Of a DNA stretch of 64,000 nucleotides, positions 990 to 45,167 are shown piece by piece (positions within the stretch are counted from its first letter, which is position 1; each line of letters opens with the position of its first letter). The notes beneath the pieces are model-generated. The model saw only the letters and a list, made by a program, of their open reading frames with translations. It did not search any database and was not told the origin of the DNA. A program made the translations under genes and the position numbers. Origin of the DNA: an uncultured Planctomycetota bacterium (lineage in GTDB: Bacteria > Planctomycetota > Planctomycetia > Gemmatales > Gemmataceae); NCBI GenBank assembly GCA_963849325.1, contig CAWKHF010000005.1:800001-864000 (forward strand), in the 5' to 3' direction.

Positions 990-990
990 T

Positions 991-1067
991 TTCCCTACTA
1001 GCCCGGAGTACCGCCAGCGACGGGTGCGACGAACTTGTCGCTGTGCTTCATCCGGGCTAGTAGGGAA
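991..1067. repeat. Intergenic palindromic REP-like element
   Basis: 17-bp perfect arms TTCCCTACTAGCCCGGA / TCCGGGCTAGTAGGGAA with further internal pairing. Confidence 0.75.
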
Positions 1068-1092
1068 GCAGTTCCTCAACAGGGAATGGGCC

Positions 1093-2595: not shown

Positions 2596-2597
2596 CC

Positions 2598-2662
2598 GTT
2601 TAGCCGCGACGCGCAGCGGAGCGCGGGACAGATCCGCGCTCCGCTGCGCGTCGCGGCTAAAC
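2598..2662. repeat. REP-like palindrome, family A copy 1
   Basis: GTTTAGCCGCGACGCGCAGCGGAGCGCGG-loop-CCGCGCTCCGCTGCGCGTCGCGGCTAAAC between convergent genes; recurs at 3838 and 5719. Confidence 0.9.
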
Positions 2663-2679
2663 AAAAGTTATTTTCCTCT

Positions 2680-3117
2680 TTACGAGCTGACCGCGCCAAG
2701 GTCGCCAAGGATGGCGGCGGCGCGGTTGGAGTCGGCCACGGTATCGAACGAAGCGTAGCCGACGAACTTGTTGCCGAGGACGGACATCATCAAGCCCTGC
2801 ATGCTCAACCCGGCCAGCGCCCACTGCTGCGTCAGGCGATGAGCCAGGCCGGCCTGATTGTCGCCCTCGACGCGCAGCACCACCGGGTTGTCGGTTTCGC
2901 TCAGGCCGGCCGAACGTGCCGCGCGCACCTGCATCGCTCCCGTGATGGGAGCGACGTAGATCACGCCCTTGCCCGGTTGGTCCGGCTGCCGCCGCGTGTA
3001 GATGTATTCGAGGTTGGCGCCAGCCTGGGCCAGCAGCGCCAGCTTGGCCGACACGCCGCCCGCCTGATCCATCACCTCGCCCGACCAGACATGCGCTCGA
3101 TCCAGTTTGAAACCCAT
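2680..3117 (-). CDS. ACT-domain (amino acid-binding) protein
   Basis: Two ACT-like repeats (DQAGGVSAKLALLAQAGANLE; GDNQAGLAHRLT..ALAGLSM). Confidence 0.75.
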   Translation of the reverse strand: MGFKLDRAHVWSGEVMDQAGGVSAKLALLAQAGANLEYIYTRRQPDQPGKGVIYVAPITGAMQVRAARSAGLSETDNPVVLRVEGDNQAGLAHRLTQQWALAGLSMQGLMMSVLGNKFVGYASFDTVADSNRAAAILGDLGAVSS

Positions 3118-3390
3118 GATAGCCACCTCGTCAGGGAAAAACTCGCTTCAACGGACGATTATATCCGCCCTCCGCCCGACAGCGAACGAGAATCCTTCTC
3201 CTTCCTTGCTTGACCGGAGGGTGGGGTCAAGTATAATCGCTGCGGATTTCCCGAAATCTCGGCGGACGTGCGGCGAACTACTCTCCGAGCACCCTCTGCC
3301 CCCATCGTGGGCGGCAGTTTCGGCAGAAACGCCATCGAGGATGGGCACCCGACACCTCGCCCAGCCTCCCTTTGCACAAGGAGTCGGCTC

Positions 3391-3819
3391 ATGTCTTTGG
3401 ACGAAGTGAAGAAACGGTTCGTGGAGGAGGTCAAGCTGCGGGCCTACGATGACAAGTACATCGACAAGAACGAAGAGCGCGAGATCCTGCAAATCGCCCT
3501 GCAGCAAGGCGTCAGCGTCGATTCGGCCCGCGCCGCCCTGGCCCAGGTCTGTGAAGGCAACGGCTACGTCCTCGAAACCCGCGTTCTCAGCGAGATCAAG
3601 GACCTGATCGACACCTTCGCCAGCAACGACGGCAAGATCGACGAGAAGGAGTTCAACGACGCCGTGGCGCAGTGCAAGAAGCGGACCCAGGGCAAGAAGA
3701 ACGAGGTCCAGTGCAAGCGCATGGTGGTGGAGGTCATCGAGGAGAACAGCTTCAAAATCAAGACGGGCATGTTCAGCAACTGGTACAATCGGGTGAGGAA
3801 AGACGTGGGCATGGCCTGA
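3391..3819 (+). CDS. Hypothetical protein
   Basis: AAGGAG RBS before ATG 3391; host-like codon usage. Confidence 0.75.
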   Translation: MSLDEVKKRFVEEVKLRAYDDKYIDKNEEREILQIALQQGVSVDSARAALAQVCEGNGYVLETRVLSEIKDLIDTFASNDGKIDEKEFNDAVAQCKKRTQGKKNEVQCKRMVVEVIEENSFKIKTGMFSNWYNRVRKDVGMA

Positions 3820-3837
3820 AACAAAACGCCGTCCTCC

Positions 3838-3903
3838 GTTTAGCCGCGACGCGCAGCGGAGCGCGGGAGTATTCCCGCGCTCCGCTGCGCGTCGCGGCTA
3901 AAC
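3838..3903. repeat. REP-like palindrome, family A copy 2
   Basis: Same arms as 2598-2662 with a different loop. Confidence 0.9.
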
Positions 3904-3928
3904 AGGGATGGAATCGGAGGAGACAAGT

Positions 3929-5713
3929 ATGTTGTTTCGTCGCTATGGACATTGGACCCTGTTGGCCGTGTTCGGCCTGGCCGTCGCGGCGCTGCCGGCC
4001 CGTGCCGAAGAAAAGACCGTGAGCCTGGCTCACATCAAATTGTCCGGCTCGCTCGACGAGTCGCCGCCGTCGGCCGATCCGCTCTTCGGGGCCGGCAGCG
4101 AGAACTTCAAGGCCAAGCTCGATCGCATCAAGAAGGCCCGCAAAGATCCCGCCATCGGCGGCCTGTATTTGCAGATCGACAGCGTCGGCATGGGCTGGGC
4201 CAAGCTCGACGAGATGAGCCGAGCCATCGCCGACTTCCGCAAGTCGGGCAAGAAAGCGTTCGCCTACCTCGAAGCGGGCAGCACCAAGGACTACCTGCTC
4301 GCCCTGGCCTGCGACGAGGTGTGCGTGCCCGAGTCCGGCTGGATCCTGTTGACCGGCCTGCGTGCCGAGGTGTCCTTCTTCAAGGACCTGTTCGAGAAGA
4401 TCGGCGTCAAGGCGGACATGCTGCAAATGGGCGATTTCAAGGCCGCCGCCGAGCCGTTCATGCGCAGCAGCATGAGCAAGCCGGCCCGCGAGCAGCTCAC
4501 CCGCGTCCTCGACGATTACTACGATCACAACATCGTCGCGCGCATCGTCCGTTCGCGGTCGGCCCAGAAGTTCACGGCGGAACAGGTCAAGAAGCTCATC
4601 GACGAAGGGCCGTACACCGCTCGCGGCGCGCTCAAGGCCGGACTCATCGACCGCGTCGGCTACCGCGAAGATTTCCGCGCCGGCATGAAAAAACACCTCC
4701 AGGCCGACTCCCTCAAGATCGTCAAGGACTACGCCAAGAAGAAGAGCGAGGACATCGACTTTTCCAACCCCTTCGCCCTGCTCAAGCTGCTGGCGCCGCC
4801 GAAGTTGACCTCCTCGAAGGGCCCCAAGATCGCGGTGATTTACGCCGTCGGCGTCATCACCACGGGCAAGAGCGAGGAGGGGTTGTTCGGCGCCGAGACG
4901 GTCGGCTCGACGACCCTGGTCCAGGCCATCCGCCAGGCGGAGCACGATGACACGGTCAAGGCGATCGTGCTGCGCGTGGACAGTCCCGGCGGCTCGGCGC
5001 TGGCCAGCGACCTCATCTGGAACGAGCTGCGGCACTCGAAGAAGCCGGTGATTGCCAGCATGTCCGACGTGGCCGCCAGCGGTGGTTACTACATCAGCAT
5101 GGCCGCCAAGAAAATCTACGCCGACCCCGGCACGCTGACCGGCTCCATCGGCGTCGTCAGCGGCAAACTGGCCGTGGGCGGCACCTTCAACAAGATCGGC
5201 ATCAAGACCGAGGTCATCAGCCGCGGTGCCAACTCCGGCATCTTCTCGGCGGAGAAGCCGTTCACCGATTCTGAACGGAAAGCGCTGACGGCGATGATGA
5301 AGGACATCTACGACCAGTTCCTCGACAAAGCCCTGGAGGGCCGCAAGAAGGCCGGCAAAAAGATGACGCGCGACGAGCTGGTCAACTTGGCCGGCGGCCG
5401 CATCTGGACCGGCCGGCAGGCCAAGGAGAACGGCCTCATCGACGAGCTGGGCAGCCTCGACGACGCCATCGCCGCCGCTCGCGGCATGACCGACCTGCCC
5501 GCCGGCAAGGAGCCGGAGCTGCTCATCCTGCCGAAATCGAAGGGCTTCCTCGATACGCTGCTGGAGGAGAAGCTCGGTAGCCGGGTGCCCGCCATGCAGC
5601 TGCTGCGCGACGTGCCCGAGCTGCGGCGTCAACTGCGCTCGCTGGACGCCATGCTGCAACTGCGCGGCCAGCCGGTGTGGATGACGCTGCCGTATCGCAT
5701 CGACATCGAGTAG
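3929..5713 (+). CDS. sppA: Signal peptide peptidase SppA (protease IV, S49, long form)
   Basis: GGAGG RBS; LRVDSPGGSA, SMSDVAASGGYYI, GSIGV, GRIWTGRQA motifs; two S49 halves. Confidence 0.92.
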   Translation: MLFRRYGHWTLLAVFGLAVAALPARAEEKTVSLAHIKLSGSLDESPPSADPLFGAGSENFKAKLDRIKKARKDPAIGGLYLQIDSVGMGWAKLDEMSRAIADFRKSGKKAFAYLEAGSTKDYLLALACDEVCVPESGWILLTGLRAEVSFFKDLFEKIGVKADMLQMGDFKAAAEPFMRSSMSKPAREQLTRVLDDYYDHNIVARIVRSRSAQKFTAEQVKKLIDEGPYTARGALKAGLIDRVGYREDFRAGMKKHLQADSLKIVKDYAKKKSEDIDFSNPFALLKLLAPPKLTSSKGPKIAVIYAVGVITTGKSEEGLFGAETVGSTTLVQAIRQAEHDDTVKAIVLRVDSPGGSALASDLIWNELRHSKKPVIASMSDVAASGGYYISMAAKKIYADPGTLTGSIGVVSGKLAVGGTFNKIGIKTEVISRGANSGIFSAEKPFTDSERKALTAMMKDIYDQFLDKALEGRKKAGKKMTRDELVNLAGGRIWTGRQAKENGLIDELGSLDDAIAAARGMTDLPAGKEPELLILPKSKGFLDTLLEEKLGSRVPAMQLLRDVPELRRQLRSLDAMLQLRGQPVWMTLPYRIDIE

Positions 5714-14868: not shown

Positions 14869-14939
14869 TGGGGATTGGTGTAACGGTAGCACGACTGACT
14901 CTGGATCAGTTAGTCTAGGTTCGAATCCTAGATCCCCAG
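14869..14939 (+). tRNA. tRNA-Gln(CTG), integration target
   Basis: Acceptor TGGGGAT/ATCCCCA, anticodon arm ACTGA-CTCTGGA-TCAGT, T arm CTAGG-TTCGAAT-CCTAG. Confidence 0.95.
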
Positions 14940-14962
14940 CTTGACTGATGTGATTGTGGCAG

Positions 14963-14996
14963 AAGGACATGCGGCGATTTGCTGCATGTCCTTTTT
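14963..14996 (+). terminator. Terminator after tRNA-Gln (element side)
   Basis: AAGGACATGCGGC / GCTGCATGTCCTT stem plus T run. Confidence 0.7.
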
Positions 14997-15000
14997 GCTT

Positions 15001-15021
15001 TTCTGACACATTCCTGACACA
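15001..15021 (+). promoter_or_regulatory. Putative integrase arm-type sites (left)
   Basis: Tandem CTGACACA x2; the same tandem occurs at 44996-45015 near attR. Confidence 0.65.
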
Positions 15022-15122
15022 AATAGGGCTTTTGGCGGGCGTTTGCACTGGTGGCAACACAGAGGGCGTTTCGCGTAGGATTCCTTACTCGGTCAGGACG
15101 TAACTGCCTTGGAGGAATCACG

Positions 15123-16349
15123 ATGGCGACCCTCGAACACGACCTCGCTTCTGGCCGCTACCGCGTCCGCTTCCGGTACGGCGGACGGCAGTTCAAACGC
15201 TCCCTGAAAACGCAGGACGAGGACAAGGCCAAGATCACGCTCGACCGGATCGAGGAAATGATCGCCCTGCTGGAACGCGGCCTCGTCGAGATGCCGCCGA
15301 ACGTGGACCCCGGCCAGTTCATCGTCACGGACGGCAAGCTGGTCAAAAAGCCAGTGGTAGAGAAGGTCGTCACCTTGAGTGACCTGTTCGACCGCTACCG
15401 CGAGATGTTGCCCGAAGGCGCGAAGGAGACCAGCACCACCACGACCGAGCGCATCCACTTCAACCACTTGAAACGCCACCTTGGCGGGAAGACGGTGGTG
15501 CAGGCTCTCACCACGGAGATCCTGCAAGAGTACATCGTCAAGCGGTCGCAGGACAAGTGGCGAGGGCGGCGAATCGGCGTGGATACGATCAAGAAGGAGA
15601 TCGCTACGCTGTGCGCGGTCTGGAACTGGGCGGCGCATCTCAAGTACCTGTCCGGCCCGGCTCCGGTGAAGGGTCTGGTATTCCCCAAGGGTAAAGAGAA
15701 GCCGCGCTTCCAGACGTGGGATGAGATCGAGCGCGTCATCGAGCGGGGTGGCATGTCGAAAGACGCCCAGAAGGAACTCTGGGACTCACTCTTCCTGACC
15801 GTCGAGCAGATCGTCGAGTTACTCGCCCACGTCGAGGGTAAGCCAAAGAAGCCCGCCTTCGTGTACCCGATGATCGCGTTCGTCGCGTACACCGGCGCTC
15901 GTCGGAGCGAGATGATGCGGGCGCGCGTCGAGGACTTCAACCTCGCCGAAGGCAGGGTCGTGATCCGCGAGAAGAAGAAGGACAAGACCAAGCAGGAGAC
16001 GTATCGGCACGTTGACCTCGCCGCACCGCTGGTGACAGTCTTGAAGGAGTGGTTCGGACAATACCACCCCGGAGGGGTGTATGCCTTCTGCCGCTTCGCA
16101 GGAAGGCCCCTGTCACGCCAAAATGCGGCTAAGGCGTTCAGACGAGCGCTGGCGAAAAGCAAGTGGCAGAAGGTTCGCGGGTTCCATGTGTTCCGCCACT
16201 CGTTCGCTTCCAACCTCGCCGCAAAGGGAATCGATCAGCGTCTCATCGATGAATGGATGGGCCACCAGACGGAGGCCATGCGGAAGCGCTACCGCCACCT
16301 TTTCCCCGACCAACGCCGCAAGGCCATCGAGTTAGTATTTTCGGGGTAA
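15123..16349 (+). CDS. Tyrosine recombinase/integrase
   Basis: TGARRSE (R), HVFRHSF (HxxR), MGH and RKRY catalytic residues; N-terminal arm-binding-like segment; next to attL. Confidence 0.93.
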   Translation: MATLEHDLASGRYRVRFRYGGRQFKRSLKTQDEDKAKITLDRIEEMIALLERGLVEMPPNVDPGQFIVTDGKLVKKPVVEKVVTLSDLFDRYREMLPEGAKETSTTTTERIHFNHLKRHLGGKTVVQALTTEILQEYIVKRSQDKWRGRRIGVDTIKKEIATLCAVWNWAAHLKYLSGPAPVKGLVFPKGKEKPRFQTWDEIERVIERGGMSKDAQKELWDSLFLTVEQIVELLAHVEGKPKKPAFVYPMIAFVAYTGARRSEMMRARVEDFNLAEGRVVIREKKKDKTKQETYRHVDLAAPLVTVLKEWFGQYHPGGVYAFCRFAGRPLSRQNAAKAFRRALAKSKWQKVRGFHVFRHSFASNLAAKGIDQRLIDEWMGHQTEAMRKRYRHLFPDQRRKAIELVFSG

Positions 16350-24050: not shown

Positions 24051-24392
24051 ATGACAACTCAAACTGAATGCCCCGGCTGTGGGGTAGGCATCGGCCAACC
24101 ACACCATGCTGAATGCGATTGCGAGGCCCATGATCCGGCCAAATCAGTCTGGACCGGCGCGTTGCCGCTGGACAGCAAGAGCCGCGACAATACTTCAGCG
24201 GACCTGATAGCGAGCGAAGGATTCGCTATTTACTGCCTTCAAGGATCTTCACGAGAGCATCACGGGGCTCCGACGAAGCAGGAGCCTACTCCTCCCCGCA
24301 AGTATCCCGACTATTTGCTCGAACGGAATGCGAGATGGACCTTCAGGACGTGTTGTGTTGAACCAGTCTCAGTAGTTTCCGGTTCGGGCTGA
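24051..24392 (+). CDS. Cys-rich hypothetical protein (possibly degenerate)
   Basis: CPGCGVGIGQPH..ECDC..HDP..SVWTG; GGAG RBS. Confidence 0.45.
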   Translation: MTTQTECPGCGVGIGQPHHAECDCEAHDPAKSVWTGALPLDSKSRDNTSADLIASEGFAIYCLQGSSREHHGAPTKQEPTPPRKYPDYLLERNARWTFRTCCVEPVSVVSGSG

Positions 24393-24437
24393 GGGAGGAG
24401 GGGTGAGGGAGACAATCGCAAGGCTCCTCCTGAGAAT

Positions 24438-25702
24438 TGGACTGCTCCCCAAAAAGTGGTCCAGGTGCTATGAGAGTCTCTGAGGCTCTTCGCGGGCAGG
24501 AGACGAACCATGAAACGACACACGGCCGAAGAGATCATCCCCAAGCTGCGACAAGCCGAGGCCGACCTCGCCCAAGGCTTGACCCTCGCCCAGGTCTGCC
24601 AACGCCTGGCCATTAGCGAGCAGACCCTGCATCGCTGGCGCAACCAGTACGGCGGACTCAAGCAAGACGAGGCCAAACGCCTCAAGGAACTGGAAGCCGA
24701 GAACGCACGCCTCAAGCGTCTGGTCGCGGAACTGGCCCTGGACAAGCAGATGCTCCAGGAGGTCGCCCAAAAAAAGTGCTGAGCGCCGACCAGCGTCGTC
24801 AGGTCGTGCGTCAACTCCAAGAGACCTTCGGCGTGTCGCAACGTCGCGCCTGCCGTGTGCTGAGGCAACCACGCTCCACGCAGCGGCAGACGCCCCAAAC
24901 CGCCGAGGAGGAGGGACGATTGGTGCAGCGGATGTTGGCGATGGTGCGGCAGCATCCGCGTTGGGGCTACCGCCGCATCACGGTGTTGCTGCGGCGGGAA
25001 GGCTGGCGTGTCAACCGCAAGCGGGTGTACCGACTGTGGCGGCAGCAAGGGCTGAAAGTACCCCGAAAGCAGCGAAAAAAACGGCGGCTGGGTCACAGCG
25101 GCAACAGTTGCGTGCGGCGGCCGGCAGAGCACAAGGACCACGTGTGGACGTGGGATTTCTTGCACGATCGGACGAGCGATGGCCGGCCTTTGAAATGGTT
25201 CACGCTGATCGACGAGTACAGCCGCGAGTGCTTGGCGTTGGAGGTGGATCGGGGCATGACGGCCCAGGCGGTGAAGACGGTGCTGGCGAGCGTGGTGCAG
25301 CAGCGTGGCGTACCGATGCACGTCCGCAGCGACAACGGCTCGGAGTTTATCGCCGCCGCCATCCGGACGTGGATGACGGCTGCGGGGTTGGAGACGTTGT
25401 ACATTGCTCCGGGCGCGCCGTGGGAAAATGGCTACGCCGAGTCGTTCAACAGCAAGGTGCGGGACGAGCTGTTGAACACGGAGGAGTTTGGCAGCGTGGC
25501 AGAAGCGAAGGTGCTAGCCAAGGAGTGGCGTCAGGAATACAACCATGTCCGTCCTCACAGTTCGTTGGGGTATCGGACGCCAGCGGAGTTCGGGGAGATG
25601 TGTCCTCGTCCCGACTCCGCTGCGCTACGCCGGGACGAGGACACATCTGTAACGGTTGATCCGACTCTCACAGCGCCTGGTACATAAAATGGGGGCAAGC
25701 CA
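24438..25702 (+). mobile_element. IS3-family insertion sequence, complete copy (1265 bp)
   Basis: Imperfect terminal IRs TGGACTGCTCCCCAAAAAGTGGTCCA / TGGCTTGCCCCCATTTTATGTACCA; TG...CA ends; orfA and orfB. Confidence 0.95.
24510..25687 (+). CDS. IS3-family transposase OrfAB (-1 programmed frameshift)
   Basis: orfA 24510-24782 (HTH), slippery A7G at 24769-24776, orfB to 25687 with DDE motifs WTWDF, RSDNGSEF, ENGYAESFN. Confidence 0.93.
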
Positions 25703-26777
25703 CCTTCGCTTCTGCCACGCTGCCAAACTCCTCCGTGTTCAACAGCTCGTCCCGCACCTTGCTGTTGAACGACTCGGCGTAGCCATTTTCCCACGGTGCG
25801 CCCGGAGCAATGTACAACGTCTCCAACCCCGCAGCCGTCATCCACGTCCGGATGGCGGCGGCGATAAACTCCGAGCCGTTGTCGCTGCGGACCGTGCATC
25901 GGTACGCCACGCTGCTGCACCACGCTCGCCAGCACCGTCTTCACCGCCTGGGCCGTCATGCCCCGATCCACCTCCAACGCCAAGCACTCGCGGCTGTACT
26001 CGTCGATCAGCGTGAACCATTTCAAAGGCCGGCCATCGCTCGTCCGATCGTGCAAGAAATCCCACGTCCACACGTGGTCCTTGTGCTCTGCCGGCCGCCG
26101 CACGCAACTGTTGCCGCTGTGACCCAGCCGCCGTTTTTTTCGCTGCTTTCGGGGTACTTTCAGCCCTTGCTGCCGCCACAGTCGGTACACCCGCTTGCGG
26201 TTGACACGCCAGCCTTCCCGCCGCAGCAACACCGTGATGCGGCGGTAGCCCCAACGCGGATGCTGCCGCACCATCGCCAACATCCGCTGCACCAATCGTC
26301 CCTCCTCCTCGGCGGTTTGGGGCGTCTGCCGCTGCGTGGAGCGTGGTTGCCTCAGCACACGGCAGGCGCGACGTTGCGACACGCCGAAGGTCTCTTGGAG
26401 TTGACGCACGACCTGACGACGCTGGTCGGCGCTCAGCACTTTTTTTGGGCGACCTCCTGGAGCATCTGCTTGTCCAGGGCCAGTTCCGCGACCAGACGCT
26501 TGAGGCGTGCGTTCTCGGCTTCCAGTTCCTTGAGGCGTTTGGCCTCGTCTTGCTTGAGTCCGCCGTACTGGTTGCGCCAGCGATGCAGGGTCTGCTCGCT
26601 AATGGCCAGGCGTTGGCAGACCTGGGCGAGGGTCAAGCCTTGGGCGAGGTCGGCCTCGGCTTGTCGCAGCTTGGGGATGATCTCTTCGGCCGTGTGTCGT
26701 TTCATGGTTCGTCTCCTGCCCGCGAAGAGCCTCAGAGACTCTCATAGCACCTGGACCACTTTTTGGGGAGCAGTCCA
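25703..26777 (-). mobile_element. Second copy of the same IS3, inverted and 3'-truncated
   Basis: Reverse complement of 24438-25511; I noted one substitution and one extra base; lacks the last ~190 bp including the IRR; orfA at 26433-26705. Confidence 0.93.
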
Positions 26778-27010
26778 GTGCGTCACCAAGTCGATTTCGA
26801 GGCCATCGTGAACGCCAGACCTCTCGATGGTCTCCGGGCCGGTACGGAGACCGACGACCTCGTTGAGCGGCAGCATGTGAACGCCGCGTAGATCGAAGTC
26901 GGAATCCGGCGACGGGAAGCCATACAGGTGCGCCCGCTGATGGTGGTGGCGAAGATCAGCCGGTACGGATGCTCCTCGACTTGTTTCTTCAACAGCAGCA
27001 TCGGGATCAT
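26778..27010 (-). pseudogene. Pol-beta nucleotidyltransferase (RlaP/YcgL-like), truncated by IS
   Basis: FAT-ISG-AHLYGFPSPDSDFDLRGVH motif across an indel; cut by the IS end after DLVTH. Confidence 0.8.
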
Positions 27011-27957
27011 GGCAATTCCTCCGACAAGGCCCGACGCCGGGCACGGATGAGGAACGCATTGGCGCGTTCGTAATCAGGGCGTTCGGGCAGCTTCGTGGTT
27101 TCAAATGCCGCGTTGAACTCTTGGTGCAGGCTGTGCCGCCAGTTCTCCACGTCCTCCCACGACACTTCACCGCGCCGGATCGCCAAGAGCCTGTCGCGGT
27201 GGGCATCGACCCTCACCGGAACGATCCCCTCGCGTAGCACTCCGATGCCCGAAAGCAATAGGCGGATCAGGTGCATGACGTGCTTCCATTTCACCTGTCC
27301 GTGGTTCCGAATGTCGGCCTGCATCTTCTTGAACTGGCTCATCACGTAACCGTTGTACGTTTGATACACCAGCCGCGAAAGGAAGCTCGTTCGCATGGCG
27401 ATCAGTTCCTCGGCCAGCGGAGTCGCTTTCTCAACCAGCGGCGTGTAGAGGCACTCCAGCACGTTCGGGTTCGCTTTCAGGGCCAGCACGAGGAACTTCT
27501 GGAGTTCCCAGTACGCTTCCTGCGTCTGGTGGTTTTCCAGTTGCTCAGGGACGCCGTAGAGGGACCAGTGTAGGTCGGCAGTCGGCAAGTAGATGCCTCG
27601 GCGATCCACGTCGGACGCGGTGTCGGCAAGGCCATACGCCTGCGAGCCAATCACACAACGGTAGATGACGCGCTGATACAGGTCCGCGTGGGCGACCGCA
27701 TGGGCGCTGTCACCGATCTCTCCCTCCTTGAACCGGGCGAGCATCGTGACCTCGCTTCGCTTGAGTGGAGCCTCGAAGCCGTCTGGGAAGCGGACTCGGT
27801 AGGAGTGTTCATGGTCGGTCGGCGACTTCACGACGACGCCCACCGTGCCGCGTGGGTGAAGGACGAGGCCAGCGGAGCCGGGAATGTCTACCAGAGTCAC
27901 GACCTGCGTGCCCACGGAGAAGATCAGTTTGGGATGGCAATGCACTCGGTCTGCCAC
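27007..27957 (-). CDS. Pol-beta nucleotidyltransferase (RlaP-like) with extra N-terminal beta domain
   Basis: IGSQAYGLADTASDVDRRGIY (GS..DxD), KANPNVLECL, KHVMHLIRLL, LPERPD. Confidence 0.85.
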   Translation of the reverse strand: MADRVHCHPKLIFSVGTQVVTLVDIPGSAGLVLHPRGTVGVVVKSPTDHEHSYRVRFPDGFEAPLKRSEVTMLARFKEGEIGDSAHAVAHADLYQRVIYRCVIGSQAYGLADTASDVDRRGIYLPTADLHWSLYGVPEQLENHQTQEAYWELQKFLVLALKANPNVLECLYTPLVEKATPLAEELIAMRTSFLSRLVYQTYNGYVMSQFKKMQADIRNHGQVKWKHVMHLIRLLLSGIGVLREGIVPVRVDAHRDRLLAIRRGEVSWEDVENWRHSLHQEFNAAFETTKLPERPDYERANAFLIRARRRALSEELP

Positions 27958-27993
27958 AGCAAAGAACTCCTATCGGTGCAACTCCATCGTTCC

Positions 27994-29316
27994 TCAGCCT
28001 GCCTCAGAAGATCCTGTGGGTTTTTCAACCAGTTTTCGACAATCCTCCGCTGAGTCGAATCGACACTCTTCCCACAGCCATTCGGGAGCCACTTGCTGTT
28101 GATGCAAGAGTCGGGCGGCATCGAATCGGCAGTTCGCGCAGGGCGTTAAGGCGTAGCTGATGACAGCCAGCCGGGAACAATCTGCCTCCGTGTTCTTTTC
28201 AAGAACCTTGATGACATCCATCAGGAGCCAGTGAAGCTCGCACTCGTCGTCGGGCAACTCCATCGCATTCAGAATCAGGTGTTCGTCCCCCTGCCGATTG
28301 TTGTTGATGAACAAGCCGACCACGGACCTGTCTCGTAATCCCTTTTGAAGCTCAGTCAGGGCGAACACCCGGACAAGCGGATGGGCATTCTCCTTCAAGC
28401 CTCTGAAGGCCCATGCGCGGACTTCTTTATCGGCGTGCCGACAGAGTTTGATGAGTTGGGCGTCGAACTCGGGCAGCGGGCGGGCCACAAAGACCTTGAC
28501 CAGATTGGCGATAACTCGTGGTTCCTCCACGGTCCAAAGGCGCTGAAGCACGGCTTTCAGATCCGCTTCCTCGGCGTGCATCCCCCAGCCTCGGAACCAA
28601 TAACATTTGGTGTCGCCTTCGGCTGCTCGGTTGATCTCCTCGACGGGTAAAGCCTTCATCCTTTCCCGGTGCGATTGGGCCTGTTTCACCTCGGCTGCTC
28701 TCTGCTTGTCTCGCCGCCAACATTCCCCGAATCTGCTGACCGCCGTGTCGGAGGGTGCGCTCAACAGGCTGCTGACGCGATCCTCACCGAGACAGTCGGT
28801 GGCTTGGTCGATTAGGCTTCTATCGTCCCAGTCCCATTCACGACATGCCAATTGCTGCCCTCGAACTCTCGCGGCAAAAAGAAATGCCCGTTCGCCATCT
28901 AACGCCATGATCTCTTCCTCTCCGAGCGAAGGACTTTCGGGGAACGGCCTCTGTTCCACGATCTCGTACAGCCGGTCGCGGAAGGTTCCGTCTCCTGTCT
29001 CGGCATAAAAGCGAGCGAGTTCGCAAAGCTGGTTGGCGCTGCGCTCGTCAGACAACTCGTGCAGAGCATGGAGAATCGGTACGCGGAACCGTTGCATGGC
29101 ATCAGCCGCCCCGACGATTTGCCAGAGCCAGCCTGCTCGTGATTCCTCGCATTGGGCGTCGAAACGCTTGTCCTGAAGGCACGCCTCCAAGAGTGGCTCG
29201 TCGCCGAGACGCCCGTTGAGCGCCCATTGCCATGCCCGCCCGAGTCCCTTTTGCAAGGCGTCCCGCTGCTGGTCGAGGGAGGGAGACGACGGTGGGGAAT
29301 AATCGCCGAACTTCAT
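27994..29316 (-). CDS. Alpha-helical (HEAT-like) hypothetical protein
   Basis: ATGA overlap with the upstream gene; helical repeats; ALQKGLGRA N-terminus; PCANCR and ECRFDS C-terminus. Confidence 0.75.
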   Translation of the reverse strand: MKFGDYSPPSSPSLDQQRDALQKGLGRAWQWALNGRLGDEPLLEACLQDKRFDAQCEESRAGWLWQIVGAADAMQRFRVPILHALHELSDERSANQLCELARFYAETGDGTFRDRLYEIVEQRPFPESPSLGEEEIMALDGERAFLFAARVRGQQLACREWDWDDRSLIDQATDCLGEDRVSSLLSAPSDTAVSRFGECWRRDKQRAAEVKQAQSHRERMKALPVEEINRAAEGDTKCYWFRGWGMHAEEADLKAVLQRLWTVEEPRVIANLVKVFVARPLPEFDAQLIKLCRHADKEVRAWAFRGLKENAHPLVRVFALTELQKGLRDRSVVGLFINNNRQGDEHLILNAMELPDDECELHWLLMDVIKVLEKNTEADCSRLAVISYALTPCANCRFDAARLLHQQQVAPEWLWEECRFDSAEDCRKLVEKPTGSSEAG

Positions 29317-30158
29317 GAACTGCCTCCAGAGCAACGTCGTATCGCCTCATCGAGTGTGGTGTCGTCGGCTTCTGCTGATTGCTTCAGCCTCTTCAGGACC
29401 GGAAGAAGGCGTGCATCGGCAATTTCCTCAGCCGCCTCAAGGCTGTAGCTGCCGTATTCCGCGTCAGGGTAGCGCTTTAATTCCTTGATGAGAGGCTCAA
29501 TGACTTGTTGATCTTTTCTGCGTGCAAGTCCCACGAGAGCTTCGCCGCGCGTCACTTCGTCCTCATCGAAAACACGCGCAAGCAGAGCCGCACGGATTAC
29601 GGGTGTGTCTTCGTCAACCTGCGTCCCTAACCCGAAAGTCGCCCAATCTCGCACGAGGTCATTCTGATCTCTCGACAATTCGATCAGCGTCGTAATCGCC
29701 AACTGGCCCTCAAAACCGAGCAGACCGAAGACAACAGCATATCGCACCTTGGCGCTCGGATGCGTCTTCAGCCGGGCCAGCGAAGGAATCGCGGTCGGAT
29801 CGTGGATGTGACCCAGCGCGATGCAGATCGCGTCGAGGACATCTTCGTCGGTTTCGACCTCAAGAAGCTTGAGCAAGACCGCCACCGACTCGTCCGGGGA
29901 GCTTCGGTTCGGGACTCCCAACTGCCCCAGAATGTTCGCCCCCAGCGTTCTCTCCTGCGGACACTCGCTGGCGCAAAGCTGACAGGCAGCGTCGAACACT
30001 TCCCGCGTTCCGCGATAGTGGAGCATCACCACTGCATCCCATGCAGCTTCCTCATCCAGCCCGGTGAGAGCCATCGTAATGAACTCGTGGGTGGTGCGCG
30101 GATCGTCTCGCGCCTCGCGGGTCCGAGACTCGGTATACGCTTTCAGGTCGTCAATCAT
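29313..30158 (-). CDS. HEAT-repeat protein
   Basis: Repeats such as ERTLGANILGQLG, VRYAVVFGL, VRDWATFGLG, TRGEALVGLA; ATGATTGA overlap with the Thg1-like gene. Confidence 0.85.
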   Translation of the reverse strand: MIDDLKAYTESRTREARDDPRTTHEFITMALTGLDEEAAWDAVVMLHYRGTREVFDAACQLCASECPQERTLGANILGQLGVPNRSSPDESVAVLLKLLEVETDEDVLDAICIALGHIHDPTAIPSLARLKTHPSAKVRYAVVFGLLGFEGQLAITTLIELSRDQNDLVRDWATFGLGTQVDEDTPVIRAALLARVFDEDEVTRGEALVGLARRKDQQVIEPLIKELKRYPDAEYGSYSLEAAEEIADARLLPVLKRLKQSAEADDTTLDEAIRRCSGGSS

Positions 30159-30937
30159 GAGCGCACCCCCCATCATTCTCGGCAATCAGCTTCCGCAGGA
30201 ATGCCGAGTAGTCGTCCTTCATGGGCAACTCAAGGTCGCGGCGAATTCGCCTTCTTCGAGCGAACACCTTCTCACCCGTGGCCGGGTTCGCCGCTGGCCG
30301 GTCATACTCCTCCCAGTAGAGCCCGACGCCGCGCTTTTGCCACGCGGGAAGATCATTGAAGTTGATGCCATGCTGGAACAGCAACTCGTTCTTGGCCGAG
30401 ACGGACAGGCCCTTCAGCGCAGCCGTGGCCTCGCCGATGCTCTGGCCCTGCTTCCGCAGCAGCCAGTAGCAGTGGCCGTTGAGCGCATTGCGATGCGCAT
30501 CTTCGCTGCGCCAACGGAAGTAATCGACAACGAGTTCGAGGGAGGGCAACTGCGAGATGCGGCAATCAAAGGACGCCAACGCCCCCAGCAACAGCGAGAA
30601 CTTCGCGCTGGCTTCACCGGCGAGGATCGAGATCAGTTTGCGGAGCTTGCGACCGAAACTGTTCTCCTCCAACCCGAATAGCAGAGAAATCTCGTCGCTC
30701 TCCGTGTAGCCGTAGACCATGTTGAAGTCACAGCCGCTCATCAGGTACTCGGCGGTCTCGACCATCAGGTCGCGGAAACGAGGATCGAACGGAGCCTCAA
30801 ACGAGTGGACCTCCTTTGTCAAGCGCGTGAAGCTGCGGCCATCCAGCCGTGTGACCATGTACAGGCCGGGGAGTACGCAAAGGTCGTGCGCCGTCTCAAA
30901 CACGCCGCATCTTCTGGTCAAGGTCATCAAACTTCAT
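30151..30937 (-). CDS. tRNA(His) guanylyltransferase Thg1-like protein (3'-5' polymerase; indel near codon 12)
   Basis: MKFDDLDQKMR start at 30937; RLDGRSF, YTESDEISLLF, FDCR, DYFRWRSEDAHRNALN. Confidence 0.9.
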
Positions 30938-31249
30938 CTTTCCACTCCTTGACGACGAACTGGTTGCTCTCGTTGATCCGCACGTAATACAGTTCGGCGA
31001 ACCCTTCCTCCTTGCTGGGGATTTGCGTCCGCCCGCGTCCCAGAATGCCTCTCAGCGGGATCTGCTCGACAGGACGCTGCTCGTTGCGGCGCTTGCAGTC
31101 CTCGACTCGGGACTGGAAGTAGTAGCCGATGACCCGAATCCGCTTCTTTCGCGGCTCGATGTACACCTGCCGTTCGGCACGTAGGATTCGTGTTGGTAGA
31201 ACGTCGATTTTCCCCCGCCCTGCAACCCAATAAAGATCACGGCTTCCAC
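30927..31249 (-). pseudogene. AAA_33-type P-loop (polynucleotide) kinase with internal deletion and indels
   Basis: IFIGLQGGGKSTFY Walker A joined almost directly to NTNPT..ERQVYI; RNEQR lid; PSKEEGF tail; stop overlaps the Thg1-like start. Confidence 0.7.
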
Positions 31250-31265
31250 AGTTCAACCTCGTTCG

Positions 31266-32670
31266 TCACTTGGCAAGGTCGAAAATCGCCATCTGCGTCG
31301 GCGGTCCCAGCTTCTCGTCTTCCGGCCCCACCGCTACGAACCGCACCGTATAGGCGAACCGCCCCGCGATTCCCTTCGCCCAGTCCTGAAACTCCTGCCG
31401 CGTCCACTCAAAGCGGTGGTCGGGATGTCGAAAGCACCCGGCCCCCAGCGTCTCCCATTTGACGTTGTACTCCCGATTCGGCGTCGTCAGCACGACCGTT
31501 CGCGGCTTGGCGAACTCGAACAACACCCGCTCGAATGCCGACAACCGTGGCGGATCAAGGTGCTCGACAACCTCGACGACACAGGCGGCGTCGAATCCCT
31601 CCAGCCGCTTATCCCGGTACATTAGGGAGCCGTGGATCAACTTCACACGCTCGGCCTGCTTGGTCGGCAACCGCTCCAGCTTCAGCCTCCGCTGGGCCAC
31701 TTCCAGCGAACGGATCGACACATCCAGTCCCACAATTTCCTCGAACTGCTTCTCTTTCAGAAGCTCGCGGATCAGCTTTCCTTCGCCGCAGCCAAGATCG
31801 AGAACGCGCTTGTCCGCCGCTGATCCGCAAAGCCGCCGTGACGGAACCGAGGCGTTGATCGTTCAAACTCAGCGGCTTTTCCAGCGTGTCTTCGGTCTTG
31901 TCGACTGGCCGCTCGTCCTCATCTGCCTCATGCGGCTCCTCCTCTTGCACGAGACGGGCGATGGCTTCACGGAAGAGACTTGGTTGGAACTTCAGGTAGC
32001 GGCGCGTGATTTCCTCCTTCTCCGGGTGTCCTGCCAGCCAGCCCTCGCCTTTGGCGAGCAGCTTCTCCATCTCATCCTTGCCGATCCAGTAGTGCTTGTT
32101 GTTGTCAAACACCGGGATCAGGACATATAGGTGCGTGAGCAAGTCAGCCAGCGTCGTCGTTTTCTGAACCGTGACCGCAAAGAAGGGACTCTCGCCCCAT
32201 TCGGGGAACCGTTCATCGAGCGGACACCGAATCGCCTCGACTGCGTATCCCAACGGCTCGAAGACATTCCGCAAGAACCGCTCACCGCCGCGCACTGGCA
32301 ACACGTCGAGCCGAGCCAACAGCGGGATCGGCGTTGTCACCAGTTTGGGCCGGTCATTGCAGCGTCCTTGAAGCGCCGAACCGAAGACCTGTGCAATCGC
32401 CACGGACATGAACGATGAAGCGGTGTACGGACGGTCGTTCACGTACTGGGCCAGCAGAAAGCTGGCGTTCGCGTTCTTGCCACGGACTATGCCTATCGGG
32501 TCCACATCGAGCAGCAGGCAGACCGTACACCGCTCGGCGCTGACTTCCGGGTAGAAGACATGGACTTTCCCGAAGCTCAGATCGAATGACTGGAACCTCT
32601 CAGGGTGCTTGTGCAGCAGATAGCCGAGGTCCGAGGCGGGCTGGTGCGTGGTGGTGATCGTCAAGAGCAT
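31266..32670 (-). CDS. hen1: 3'-terminal RNA ribose 2'-O-methyltransferase Hen1 (indel near 31820)
   Basis: MLLTITTT..DLGYLLHKHP and YVNDRPY N-terminal domain; LDLGCGEG SAM motif; EVVEHLD; RHPDHRFEW. Confidence 0.93.
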
Positions 32671-32851: not shown

Positions 32852-34342
32852 ATGGACCGAGACAACCGCAAACCGAAGAAGGATCTCACCGAAGAGCTTA
32901 ACCCGGACCTCCTCACCCACATCAGGTCGCTTGGCCTCACCGGCGTCGAGGACTACATCGCGTGGTGCGCCGAGCACGGTTTCAGCCGCCGCACGGACAA
33001 GCACTGGCGACTCCGCTTGAAGGAGCGGACCTACGCCACCCGCGCCATCGCCGATGCCCGCCTTGCCCAAAAGAAACAAGAACTCAGAAAGCCCGAAAAG
33101 ATTATCCAGAGGATCTTCAACGGCGAGCTTCACGAGGATGATGTCACCCAGCCTCACTTGAAGGCGGTCTGCCGGGCGTGCAAATCTGCACAAGAATCGC
33201 GTCGAACTCGGCTCGCCTTTCACGACCTCCTGCAACACGTCGGCATGTGCTCCGACCTCGTAAATTGCCAGCCCGTGATCTCGCAGTATGGTTGGCAAGC
33301 CGGGAATACCTTCGTGGATGGCCTGCTGGCGTTGGCCCGGCACTCACGAAACTGGACTCGCCCGGTCGCCGATTGGAAGCCCCAGACGCACAACACGCGC
33401 CGCCAGTTTTCCTCACTGGCGCGGCACTTGTTCGCCGAGTGGCCGGTTCCCCCTTTCATGGATTCCGTCTGGTTCTTGGGGAACAGCAGAGCAGCCGTCC
33501 AGCAGCAAGGCTGGTTTCTGCACATCGGCAGAGGGCAGAACATTCGCACGGCGGATCTCCCGCTTCCCTACACGAAGCGCATGGCTCACCACTTTATGCA
33601 AGCTCCTTCTGACCTCACGGTCGAGGCGGCGCTGCGCTGGGGCCAGATCCACGGACTCGGCGGCTCGGAGCGTCTGGTGCGAGCCATCATGGGAACGCGC
33701 CTCGGCACGGACTTCGAGCACGATGATTTCTGGATCACCGTGTTCCAGTTCTTTATCGCCAATCCGATGCTTGATCTGGCTCAGGTCGGCCCGCTCATCG
33801 ACTACATCCACCAGCAGCGGTTTGTTTCGCAAGACGGGTTCATTGCTCCCGGTGTCGTCGAACGCCGAGGACCGGCGCAGCCGAACTTCACGATGAAAGG
33901 ACGCACGCCCGCGTCCTTGCTGCGGCAGGTGGACTCATGGCATAAGTCGCTGGCGAAGGTGCAGCAGCCGAAAGCCGAGTGGCCTCCCTCGGGGACTCCA
34001 ACATTCGAGTTCATCGAAGGGGGAGAGAAAAGTGGCAATTTGAAGGTCTGGACAATCACCGAACTGCTCAGCACCAAGGCGCTCGTCGCCGAGGGCCGAA
34101 AGATGAAGCATTGCGTGGCAACTTACGCCCATTCGTGCGCCAGCGGAGATTGCTCCATCTGGACGTTAGAGGTCGAGACGTTCGAGGGACGCTCCAAGAT
34201 ACTGACCATCGAGGTACAGACCGCAACGAAGTTGATTTGTCAGGCACGAGGGAAGTGCAACATGCTCCCCGGCGACAAGCACCGTGGCATCCTGCGCCGC
34301 TGGGCTGAGCAGGCGCGACTCCAGTTGGCGAAGCATGTGTAG
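32852..34342 (+). CDS. PcfJ-like domain protein
   Basis: ELLSTKALVAEGRKMKHCVATY..CSIWTL..LTIEV..QARGKCN C-terminal PcfJ signature; NFTMKGRT. Confidence 0.85.
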   Translation: MDRDNRKPKKDLTEELNPDLLTHIRSLGLTGVEDYIAWCAEHGFSRRTDKHWRLRLKERTYATRAIADARLAQKKQELRKPEKIIQRIFNGELHEDDVTQPHLKAVCRACKSAQESRRTRLAFHDLLQHVGMCSDLVNCQPVISQYGWQAGNTFVDGLLALARHSRNWTRPVADWKPQTHNTRRQFSSLARHLFAEWPVPPFMDSVWFLGNSRAAVQQQGWFLHIGRGQNIRTADLPLPYTKRMAHHFMQAPSDLTVEAALRWGQIHGLGGSERLVRAIMGTRLGTDFEHDDFWITVFQFFIANPMLDLAQVGPLIDYIHQQRFVSQDGFIAPGVVERRGPAQPNFTMKGRTPASLLRQVDSWHKSLAKVQQPKAEWPPSGTPTFEFIEGGEKSGNLKVWTITELLSTKALVAEGRKMKHCVATYAHSCASGDCSIWTLEVETFEGRSKILTIEVQTATKLICQARGKCNMLPGDKHRGILRRWAEQARLQLAKHV

Positions 34343-40384: not shown

Positions 40385-42516
40385 TCAAGAGCTATTGCCA
40401 GCGTAGATCGCCTGAATTAAAGCATAAATGACAGATTTCTCTTCGTCTGGGCGACTACGAAACTCTTTTTTTGTGGTCATTCTTATCAGTTTGTTGACAA
40501 GAAAAGGCAGGCTGAAGCGGCCTTTAAGCTGATCGATATTCGCGTCAACCTGACGCTGCTCGTAGTAGTCCATCCCACTAGAAGGTTTTATTCTCACATA
40601 CTCGCACAAATAGTGGATAAGTGCATCATCGTCTTCTACCACTTTCTCCATAAAATCCGCGATTTCCTTATTATCTCTGTCAGCAATTTGTTCCCAGTAA
40701 TTGAGAATCGCGCAAATCCGTGGATGCTTCAGTAGTCGTCCATCAGCCGCCCATGTGGCAATTTTTTCGTTCATGAACCGCCTCGCATCTGCGCTTCCCG
40801 CAAGATACTTTTGACACATCAAGATCGGGATTAAAAGGCTCTTCGAAGAAGTCGCAGCCGCTTCCTCGATTGCATAACTGGGTTTGCTCTCGGGACCGTA
40901 GCGAAAGATCACTTGGTTGATTATGTCCATCACAAGTTGCGTTGTCGGAATGTCAAGGCTTCTCTCCTCTTCGGATGCGGAGCTTTCGTCGAACACATCA
41001 CCTAAATCAGCAAGCGCCATAATGAGGTTTGCGGCAATGTCATCAGAGACAAGTCGTGAATCTACATAACCCCAGAGAGTTTCCAATAACCGCCTAGCAC
41101 GGCCTTCGTTATTCAGGACTAATAGGCCACCAGCTAGCGCCTCGCAAATCAGTTGCATTTGTCAGGAGCCTTTCAATTTCGCTCCTCTCCAAATCTCCCC
41201 TCGGCAGAGAAAGGCTGAAGAACAGATCAAAATTGGTGGGAAAGCAGAATCCTTCCCTCTCTCCTCCACTGAGGCTGTGGCGTGTAATCGAGAACGCCCC
41301 CTTGTTTCTGTTCAGTAACAATTTTGTTAATCTTCGGAAATAGAAGCTGTAATATCGTAAGAGGATGGTTGTCCGATTTGCCCTTCTGCGATTTAACGAT
41401 TTCGTTAAGCGTGGCGACTGCATTTTGCATGATGATGTAATAAGGACTGCTTTCTTCTTTGGATGTCTGCCGAGTGAGAAACGTCTTGTTGGCGGCGAGG
41501 GCCTCGTAGATCGCAGGCTCAAATAGTTGAAGAACGGTGATGCCAATTAAGTCGGTCGGCGACAATCCTCCTCTCGCAGTGTTGAAGTTGAAGGACAAGA
41601 CGTTCAGATACCGCTTTGCTTCCCGAAGATCGGCGATGTAAGGTTTCACACCATACTGGAACACGTTTCGCAAATGATTTTGGTCGTATTCTTCAGTCTT
41701 CACTCTGTCCATCAGTTCCCGAATGGAACGCTGCAAAAACCTATGCACTTCCACGACGGGAATCTCGGGCACTCTGAACGGGACTTGGACGATCTTCTCC
41801 AAGAACGCCTCTCCGCTCTGGATTTGCACCCCCGCCAGTTGCTCTGCCACCATCTTCTCATCGAACGCCAACAGATAAACCGTGTTGGGGAAGTTCGCCA
41901 ACGACTTCACCACTTGGAACAGTTGCCGGGCCTCGGTAGCGCTCAATCGGTCGATCTCGTCAATGATGATGATCAGCTTGTGCGGTTGTTTGGCAAGTGC
42001 CTCGTCGATGTTCCGCTTTTGTTTTTCGATGCTCTCTGCCCCCGTCACAAACCCCGCGAGCCATTTGTTGAACCAATTAGCCAGCTTCAACAATCCGCCG
42101 ATGATCTTCCCCTCCGGGGTGGGGATCAGTCCCATCGGGGTAAGGTAATCCGAGTAAGTCTCCAACAGCCTTGACGTTTTCCTGATCCCTAGTGACGTGT
42201 TCCACTTGCCCAGCACGCCTAACATTTCGTCAAAGAACCTGTATATCAGGACGGTTTCGTCCGTCACCATCCAAGGGTTGAACTCGATGACAATCGGCTG
42301 TTCTTCCTTCCGTATTCCCCTGATCTTCTCCGCGAGACACTCCCTCGCCATTCGGAGTATGGAGGACTTCCCCGAACCCCACGGACCCAACAGCCCGATC
42401 ACCAACGGCGACTTGTCGGGACGGGACACGAGGGCCTGCGCCAGCGAGTCGGCGAACTTTTTTCGACAAAGAATGTCTTCGGCAGAAGAGCGGATCGGTT
42501 CGTCATCCAGAAACAC
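40385..42516 (-). CDS. KAP-family P-loop NTPase (indels near 41160-41240)
   Basis: DEPI..DIL.R..FA..LA, GPWGSGKSS, EFNPW, IIIDEIDRL, FLEKIVQVPF; visibly lower GC. Confidence 0.9.
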
Positions 42517-45143: not shown

Positions 45144-45167
45144 TAGGTTCGAATCCTAAATCCCCAG
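45144..45167 (+). repeat. attR: duplicated 3' end of tRNA-Gln
   Basis: TAGGTTCGAATCCTAAATCCCCAG, 23/24 identical to 14916-14939. Confidence 0.9.

Follow-up and report, generated by a model that had tools for sequence, protein, structure and literature searches.

We examined a gene cluster with the character of an RNA-repair operon in the DNA of an uncultured planctomycete of the family Gemmataceae (GenBank assembly GCA_963849325.1). The window, by which we mean the whole 64,000-nucleotide (nt) stretch that was analysed (contig CAWKHF010000005.1, positions 800,001 to 864,000), carries this cluster at 26778..32670 on the minus strand. As an earlier reading of the sequence (the original prediction) had stated, the cluster consists of seven co-directional genes, most of them with overlapping stop and start codons. 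Pfam and NCBIfam profile matches, by which gene families were assigned, confirmed the gene identities that it had proposed and the RNA-repair character of the whole. Read from 32670 down to 26778, the genes encode Hen1, a small P-loop kinase, a Thg1-like protein, a YibA-like HEAT-repeat protein, a protein that we call H446, the nucleotidyltransferase RlaP1 and, over its first 77 codons only, RlaP2. No gene for a sealing enzyme accompanies them: a tblastn search of the window with the 867-amino-acid (aa) Pnkp of a relative gave no match below E 0.03, and no other ligase was found within the window either. We therefore asked what this missing ligase means.

Four of the six junctions between these genes overlap and the remaining two are spacers, as read from the sequence. 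With refined start codons (Thg1 ATG at 30937, HEAT ATG at 30158, H446 ATG at 29316 and RlaP2 ATG at 27010), the kinase and Thg1 genes share 11 nt, the HEAT start overlaps the Thg1 stop in ATGATTGA, and HEAT/H446 and RlaP1/RlaP2 each overlap in ATGA. Spacers of 16 nt and 36 nt separate Hen1 from the kinase and H446 from RlaP1, respectively.

The first gene, Hen1 (31266..32670, minus strand), encodes a 3'-terminal RNA 2'-O-methyltransferase that matches Hen1_L at 4e-113 and TIGR04074 over positions 1-283 and 310-461, in two frames. It shares the build of the Hen1 proteins of the Pnkp/Hen1 system, namely an N-terminal Hen1_L domain that binds the Pnkp ligase and a C-terminal methyltransferase domain, whose S-adenosylmethionine motif VLDLGCGEG is legible in the second reading frame. 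When compared with six relatives, with the metagenome contig L123 (the sole locus with the gene order of the window) and with a 92%-identical contig (X2), Hen1 has one additional base near 31812, which disrupts its reading frame. Its N-terminal domain has kept a match at 5e-88 to the solved domain that binds Pnkp (PDB 4DQZ, 4DRF and 4E6N), which suggests that the Pnkp partner of this Hen1 was lost recently.

The second gene is a remnant of a small polynucleotide-kinase-like P-loop kinase (30927..31249, minus strand). Its 109-aa open reading frame (ORF) has no Pfam match; at the DNA level it can be aligned with AAA_33 kinases in relatives (the homologue in locus L003 matches AAA_33 at 3e-15), and both the GTG start and the Walker-A motif GLQGGGKST are kept. 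Relative to the six relatives and L123, the gene has lost 116 nt internally after 31196 and then a further 2, 1 and 2 nt, and the P-loop frame runs into a stop, leaving the window with no intact polynucleotide kinase beside Thg1. The original prediction had suspected that the kinase was damaged, and these lesions bear it out. The adjacent gene (30151..30937, minus strand) encodes a Thg1-like protein (TLP), a type of 3'-5' RNA polymerase, with matches to Thg1 (2e-29, profile positions 7-130 of 130) and Thg1C (4e-16, positions 3-90 of 116); its nearest solved structures are likewise TLPs (5AXK, the best, at 4e-30, and 4KGK at 3e-18). Its frame is broken past codon 11 by an added base near 30904, with ATGCGGCGTG in the window where relatives have ATGCGGGTG.

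Two side observations concern this kinase-Thg1 module. The 3' end of the Thg1 gene contains a run of six G at 30170-30175. In X1, a short-read contig of a different sample that is 99% identical (depth 5.1), the run is shorter by one G, which would fuse Thg1 in frame with the HEAT gene; in L123 the two genes are separate and overlap. L123 itself carries a lesion of its own (3458-4008), a 654-nt deletion that joins kinase codon ~121 to Thg1 codon ~190. The module has thus been damaged independently in both loci with the HEAT-H446 insertion, the window and L123, and because the deletion in L123 is a different one, the module seems from these sequences to decay readily in this operon lineage.

The two RlaP genes at the distal end of the cluster are in different condition. 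RlaP1 (27007..27957, minus strand) encodes a Pol-beta-fold RNA 3'-nucleotidyltransferase with a ~95-aa N-terminal extension (RlaP, 2e-45). It seems intact: it is 93% identical to its L123 homologue and shows no frame-breaking indel relative to it. No solved relative was found by sequence. The RlaP2 fragment (26778..27010, minus strand; RlaP, 3e-08) has lost one base, with a frame break near 26935 relative to L123. The translations of both match PF10127 and contain GSQAYG...SDVD and SGAHLYG...SDFD, respectively, which we take to be the Pol-beta G[GS]...DxD signature of RlaP nucleotidyltransferases. The two are ~27% identical, that is, tandem diverged paralogues.

RlaP2 is cut at 26777/26778, where the terminal sequence of an insertion sequence (IS) begins directly past ...EIDLVTH, at codon 77. 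This is also the point at which the homology with L123 ends. Two IS copies in inverted orientation occupy 24438..26777: one is complete (24438-25702), and the other, partial and inverted, runs from 26777 back to 25694. The same terminal sequence lies at both outer ends. We assign the element to the IS3 family on the basis of the HTH_21 and rve domains of its transposase. Its ends are defined by other copies in the genome, and blastn against the genome finds further full copies on contigs C5, C9 and C13. The other flank of the IS pair is not RlaP2, and the sequence left of the IS shows no resemblance to the distal operon genes that are missing.

L123 indicates what has probably been lost at this junction. 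Its DNA is 83% identical to the window over 5.5 kb, with the shared order Hen1, kinase/Thg1, HEAT, H446, RlaP1, RlaP2, and it continues past RlaP2 into an RNA ligase (PF09414, 5e-33), a gene with HD and AAA_33 kinase domains, and a Pnkp that runs off the contig. The original prediction had noted the IS at the 3' end of the cluster and had cautioned that a ligase might have been lost there. That caution was well placed, as L123 continues into ligase genes at exactly this point. RlaP, which has no RNA ligase beside it in the window, adjoins one in L123, L124, L125, L130, L003, G344 and G239, and an ORF for a PF09414 ligase lies directly upstream of an HD + AAA_33 kinase ORF in L123, L134, L143, L003, L075 and L119. 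Altogether, we are confident that the locus represents the proximal part of a composite Pnkp/Hen1-type RNA (tRNA) repair operon, whose distal, ligase-encoding end appears to have been lost to an IS3 element. The lost part would have comprised the rest of RlaP2, the RNA ligase, the HD-kinase and Pnkp.

If kinase and Thg1 had taken the place of Pnkp, as the original prediction proposed, loci with Hen1 and Thg1 should be found without it. We scanned one genome per species for Thg1 and kept the best 80 of 292 relatives as loci. Their Thg1 homologues, at 64-81% identity, represent Planctomycetota, Cyanobacteria, Acidobacteriota, Chloroflexota and other groups. The content of each locus was determined by tblastn with the proteins of the window and of L003, with Hen1 counted as present at a coverage of at least 0.8. 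The small kinase precedes Thg1 in 59 of the 80 loci and Hen1 is present in 29. A full-length Pnkp of ~870 aa accompanies Hen1 in 24 of these 29, usually directly after Thg1; the Pnkp of relatives has the canonical AAA_33, Metallophos and PNKP_ligase domains (Pfam, 1e-182; 867 aa). One further locus (L062) holds only a C-terminal Pnkp fragment, and in the remaining four (L006, L015, L041 and L057) the contig ends before a Pnkp could appear. Every Hen1 locus with sufficient flank thus contains Pnkp sequence (25/25: 24 full length and one fragment), and the recurrent cassette, as judged by this gene content, is Hen1-kinase-Thg1-Pnkp rather than one in which kinase and Thg1 replace Pnkp.

We next looked for a ligase elsewhere in the genome, as the original prediction had recommended. 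The assembly comprises 8.16 Mb in 14 contigs, with an estimated completeness of 84.7%. Profile searches (PF16542 and TIGR04075) found no PNKP_ligase domain in it, and the L123 ligase has no homologue there, with PF09414 giving a weak match only. DUF4291 and the C-terminal part of the RlaP2 of this lineage are likewise missing from the 8.16 Mb. Of the ligases sought, only RtcB is present, as one gene on another contig (C10:46269-47539) with no sign of linkage. A kinase-phosphatase without a ligase domain, encoded at C4:173329-174614 (L086 7240-8735) between genes for a nucleotidyl-transferase and pyruvate dehydrogenase E1, was considered as the lost Pnkp and rejected: its identity to the L003 Pnkp is only 54-70% (residues 1-434), it ends before any ligase domain, and it stands among unrelated metabolic genes.

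The absence of Pnkp from a genome with Hen1 is itself exceptional. Among 400 Planctomycetota genomes examined, 39 of the 41 other Hen1-positive genomes also encode PNKP_ligase, and the two exceptions have truncated Hen1 matches only and come from assemblies of 310 and 370 contigs. G000 is the sole genome with a whole Hen1 and no PNKP_ligase. This co-occurrence fits the statement, in the part of PMC4411300 that concerns the two genes, that Pnkp and Hen1 always share an operon, and it makes the Hen1 of the window the odd one out.

The first of the two helical-repeat proteins, the 281-aa HEAT protein (29313..30158, minus strand), matches HEAT_2 at 9e-20 and the PRK09687/YibA-like model at 3e-63, under that model's cut-off, as well as the E. 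coli YibA structure 1OYZ at 2e-16. Its close homologues (54-80% identity) adjoin kinase-Thg1 (L005) or H446 (L123 and L129). Six distant homologues (35-44% identity) were examined and none has RNA-repair neighbours, so the link of the HEAT protein to repair is limited to close relatives.

H446 (27994..29316, minus strand; 446 aa as called and 440 aa from the refined start) belongs to no Pfam or NCBIfam family, and nearly all of its 308 homologues are annotated as "hypothetical protein". Its conserved columns near the C-terminus include an invariant CxxC, further conserved Cys residues (CxxC...C...C), and invariant His and Arg positions. An AlphaFold2 model (pLDDT 88.8) consists entirely of helices and resembles an ARM/HEAT-like solenoid; a Foldseek search of the PDB with this model returned generic ARM/HEAT solenoids only (best E 3e-03, TM-score ~0.3), and the ESM Atlas returned "hypothetical protein" clusters only. 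A predicted complex of RlaP2 with H446 scored 0.00 in two runs made without controls, a value that speaks neither for nor against their association. H446 is absent from all 80 Thg1-homologue loci. Homologues that are 47-49% identical were found in two Planctomycetota genomes of the complete, cultured type, in both cases inside repair operons with Pnkp: the order is HD-kinase, Hen1, x, Pnkp, RlaP1, RlaP2, H446 in G344, and Hen1, RlaP1, three small genes, RlaP2, H446, Pnkp in G239. A metagenome scan with the single H446 protein gave no match, and a scan with an alignment of its closer relatives yielded 32 loci. H446 and Pnkp occur together in 11 of these, with H446 directly upstream of Pnkp in 10; others carry Hen1, RlaP1, RlaP2, kinase and Thg1 in varying orders, and no repair gene is present in at least six loci, which have long flanks and are less similar. 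H446 and the YibA-like HEAT protein could plausibly serve as a scaffold, the role that the original prediction had given to the HEAT proteins, or as an RNA-binding cofactor.

How much of the damage at the locus is real depends on the quality of the assembly. Frame breaks are frequent throughout it and also occur in essential genes: rpoB (C1:334967-338611) is split into at least four pieces, a gyrA-like gene (C14:48379-50982) into about ten and RtcB into three. Several of the breaks (in Hen1, Thg1, RlaP2 and one rpoB site) share a GCGG context. Because rpoB, the gyrA-like gene and RtcB are split as well, we regard the single-base breaks in Hen1, Thg1 and RlaP2 as probable assembly errors, and Hen1 and Thg1 are probably intact in the organism. 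Given such frequent indel errors, any pseudogene call in this genome is provisional. The 116-nt deletion in the kinase is of a different size class from single-base errors, and we take it as probably real, if with appreciable doubt.

From the characterised homologues, we can propose how an intact operon of this kind would work. The modules of the intact relatives are Hen1 with Pnkp, the small kinase with the Thg1-like protein, two RlaP proteins, often an RNA ligase with an HD-kinase, and one or two helical-repeat proteins. A ribotoxin would cut a tRNA to leave 2',3'-cyclic phosphate and 5'-OH ends, which the phosphatase and kinase modules of Pnkp and the HD-kinase would heal. RlaP would give back one or two lost 3' nucleotides, in keeping with the addition of one or two nucleoside monophosphates to damaged RNA 3' ends described in PMC12776372. 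The Thg1-like enzyme would rebuild a shortened 5' side by copying the template strand; 5'-end repair by TLPs is covered in part of PMC3061083, and a bacterial Thg1 + polynucleotide kinase neighbourhood, with its logic of kinase and then Thg1, in passages of PMC2904730. Hen1 would methylate the 3'-terminal 2'-OH, and the Pnkp ligase, activated by the Hen1 N-domain, would seal the break, leaving a junction immune to re-cutting (methylation and sealing are treated in parts of PMC6097658 and PMC4411300). With no sealing enzyme and no intact 5' kinase, the copy in the window is predicted to be unable to seal breaks and to retain, at most, isolated end-modifying activities.

Several observations weigh against reading the locus as the remainder of a ligase-bearing operon. 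Kinase-Thg1 pairs have neither Hen1 nor Pnkp nearby in 29 of the 80 loci, which indicates that this module can work without a neighbouring ligase and agrees with the neighbourhood described in passages of PMC2904730. HEAT, H446 and RlaP1 show no frame-breaking change over ~3.2 kb relative to L123 and may still be in use. The base quality of the assembly is poor, so that some of the lesions may be spurious; the inverted IS pair may itself have been wrongly assembled, and at an estimated 84.7% completeness a Pnkp gene may lie on unassembled DNA. The first of these points, together with the absence of a ligase from the window, is what could be said for the mobile, ligase-independent end-rebuilding system of the original prediction, in which phosphorylation of the 5' end, extension by Thg1, 3' addition by RlaP and protection by Hen1 would suffice, with kinase and Thg1 replacing Pnkp. 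In principle, none of these enzymes depends on ligation for its action on an RNA end (PMC2904730 and PMC12776372). We nevertheless consider this system highly improbable, because Pnkp sequence is present wherever Hen1 and kinase-Thg1 have enough flank, the sole locus of the same order continues into two ligase genes, the operon ends at an IS junction inside RlaP2, the kinase for the proposed first step is itself broken, and the Hen1 N-domain is the conserved ligase-activating domain. The intact homologous loci all carry Pnkp or another ligase, which is the very outcome that the original prediction had named as its refutation.

A second alternative is that Hen1, the Thg1-like protein, RlaP1 and the helical proteins are kept as a useful remnant, serving a ligase elsewhere (RtcB on C10) or the repair of tRNA ends without sealing. 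The integrity of HEAT, H446 and RlaP1, the likely origin of the single-base breaks in Hen1 and Thg1 as assembly errors, and the existence of an RtcB gene would all fit. We think this unlikely. RtcB joins 3'-phosphate and 5'-OH ends, whereas the products of Hen1, RlaP and Thg1 carry 3'-OH and 5'-phosphate (an incompatibility of end types that is discussed for RlaP in passages of PMC12776372); moreover, RtcB is unlinked, the small kinase is internally deleted, and the lack of decay may only reflect a recent IS event. It is also possible to attribute the lesions to the assembly, the organism having a complete operon and the IS junction, inverted IS pair and 116-nt deletion all arising from a noisy assembly of the long-read type. 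The frame breaks in essential genes and the shared GCGG context point in this direction, as do the abutting inverted IS copies. Such copies make up a palindrome, a recognised form of mis-join, and the IS junction may conceivably be a mis-join too. However, a mis-join would leave the distal genes on some contig, and PNKP_ligase, the L123-type ligase, DUF4291 and the RlaP2 C-terminus are nowhere in the assembly. The 116-nt deletion is also far larger than the single-base errors elsewhere, and large deletions do occur in this module, as in L123. An artefact on this scale is, in our view, a rather poor explanation. The ligase missing from the window is therefore, on the evidence of gene content, best described as a loss and not as a new ligase-free design for repair.

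The mobile context that the original prediction had surmised found support. A tRNA-Gln gene at 14869-14940 is followed by a tyrosine integrase at 15051-16349 (both on the plus strand, 14869..16349; ARAGORN, and Phage_integrase at 3e-29), and a 24-nt direct repeat of the 3' end of the tRNA (23/24 bases, blastn-short, E 7e-06 within the window) is found at 45144..45167 on the plus strand, ~30 kb from the copy at 14916-14939. The locus is probably situated within a ~30-kb integrative island (14869-45167) at tRNA-Gln, with the tRNA-Gln and integrase genes as its left border and 45144-45167 as its putative right border. In addition to the IS pair and the repair cluster, the island contains genes for a DUF5131 protein, a weak Rep-like protein and a PAS/GAF histidine kinase, as well as a PcfJ-like gene (32852..34342, plus strand; PcfJ, 3.5e-13) divergent from Hen1. 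A PifA-like KAP NTPase gene at 40385-42516 on the minus strand, apparently split over two ORFs (PADLOC PifA, 7e-64), lies in the region's only low-GC stretch (GC 0.47-0.53, against ~0.60) and is a candidate for abortive-infection cargo. PADLOC recognised no protein of the operon as a defence system, with weak HEAT-type and methyltransferase matches only.

Further observations concern the surroundings of the RlaP genes and the IS. The IS copies lie tail to tail, the full copy against a partial copy of 1084 nt, giving a palindrome with 1.08-kb arms that may be genuine, through nesting or rearrangement of the IS, or a product of the assembly. Directly to the left of the IS, at 24362-24437, there is a sequence of 69-76 nt with at least seven copies in the genome (two each on C4 and C12, and one each on C7, C10 and C14), probably the end of another mobile element. 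One of these copies is located ~1.5 kb from a second RlaP1-RlaP2 pair of the same genome, beside a DDE transposase. This second pair (C7:191581-193232; L087 5582-7233) is ~47-54% identical to the pairs of the window and L003 and adjoins the DDE transposase; no Hen1, Pnkp or Thg1 was found near it.

The relatives hold additional genes as well. Between RlaP1 and RlaP2, some encode an AbiEii-type nucleotidyltransferase (6e-20) and a conserved ~130-aa protein of no family, with the N-terminus ...TLFRPVGQ.ELDLI... (positions 10437-12516 of L120, the locus in G239, and 8856-9239 of L143). A DUF4291 protein (PF14124, 2e-62) recurs in the repair clusters of L003, L013, L045 and L127, placed immediately downstream of Thg1 or Hen1 or immediately upstream of Pnkp, as an uncharacterised companion. 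L143 also encodes two PcfJ-like proteins (574-3301) that are 34-40% identical to the one in the window, a few kb upstream of a cluster of ligase, HD-kinase, RlaP1, RlaP2 and H446 genes. The link of PcfJ to repair clusters may thus be no accident.

For the window, our result is mostly corrective: since it appears to hold an IS-truncated and partly decayed copy of a Pnkp/Hen1-type operon, no new mechanism is needed to explain it. The intact loci have more to offer. We tentatively propose, while regarding the whole as more doubtful than probable, that they represent a composite RNA-repair super-operon of Gemmataceae and allies, made up of Hen1, the ligase and HD-kinase, the kinase and Thg1-like protein, two RlaP, H446 (with or without the YibA-like HEAT protein) and Pnkp; that the cysteine-bearing, 440-aa H446 could be a new subunit dedicated to Pnkp-type machines, or a cofactor that presents RNA to them; and that Pnkp/Hen1 might normally work with a reverse polymerase that rebuilds 5' ends. 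Many Nostocales, the order to which the Anabaena model system belongs, have the four-gene form Hen1-kinase-Thg1-Pnkp, which would imply that the textbook Pnkp/Hen1 machine normally has such a partner. If so, a break could be repaired even where nucleotides are missing on both of its sides. It is the intact loci, not the copy in the window, that are the right material for studying tRNA repair of this kind. Of wider use are the very tight linkage of Hen1 with Pnkp across the sampled phylum, the union of separately described RNA-repair modules in single operons of planctomycetes and cyanobacteria, and the finding that an uncharacterised helical-repeat family, H446, travels with Pnkp.

Each of the modules is already known, as Pnkp/Hen1, as Thg1 + kinase, as RlaP beside ligases and as ligase + HD-Pnk (the last in parts of PMC6097658). 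No single operon that unites them, with Thg1-kinase lying between Hen1 and Pnkp and with H446 beside Pnkp, was found in the literature searched, nor any paper that describes Hen1 with Thg1. That search did not extend to the survey of Burroughs and Aravind (2016), the likeliest place for an earlier account, so the combination may already have been described. One close counterpart is the Pnkp/Hen1 system, with which the Hen1 of the window shares its two-domain build and the relatives their canonical Pnkp. The textbook form of this system is a two-gene cassette; here, Hen1 and Pnkp of the relatives stand up to seven extra genes apart, and the window and its genome lack Pnkp altogether. The E. coli protein YibA, a HEAT-repeat protein of unknown function, offers a likeness through PRK09687 and 1OYZ, whereas the HEAT protein of the window scores under the NCBIfam cut-off and only its close homologues have repair neighbours.

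The kinase-Thg1 module corresponds to the Thg1 + polynucleotide kinase neighbourhood of Anantharaman, Iyer and Aravind (2010; PMC2904730), with TLP 5'-end repair the subject of PMC3061083: a kinase directly upstream overlaps a Thg1-like gene, as in the 59 loci above. It differs in that the pair is embedded here between Hen1 and Pnkp-type genes and that the kinase of the window is internally deleted; no Hen1 context was found in the passages or the supplement of PMC2904730, in which the word Hen1 does not occur. The RlaP genes match the family, and the operons of the relatives hold 5'-phosphate RNA ligases, as passages of PMC12776372 describe for other systems. Here, however, there are two tandem diverged paralogues, the first with an extension, while the RlaPs studied so far occur singly, within RtcB operons. 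The pair of PF09414 ligase and HD-kinase in the relatives resembles the ligase + HD-Pnk cluster of Runella slithyformis (Munir and Shuman 2017, cited in the relevant part of PMC6097658). This module belongs to the IS-lost part and is absent from the window, and the relatives combine it with Hen1, Pnkp and RlaP instead of Tpt1. Finally, the ligase-less architecture of the kinase-phosphatase on C4 is reminiscent of Pnkp1 in the Pnkp1-Rnl-Hen1 system, as outlined in parts of PMC4411300. That gene has neither Rnl nor Hen1 nearby and stands amid sugar-nucleotide and pyruvate-dehydrogenase genes, and the Hen1 of the window, by comparison with the same parts of PMC4411300, is of the ordinary Pnkp type (TIGR04074) rather than the distant type of Pnkp1-Rnl-Hen1.

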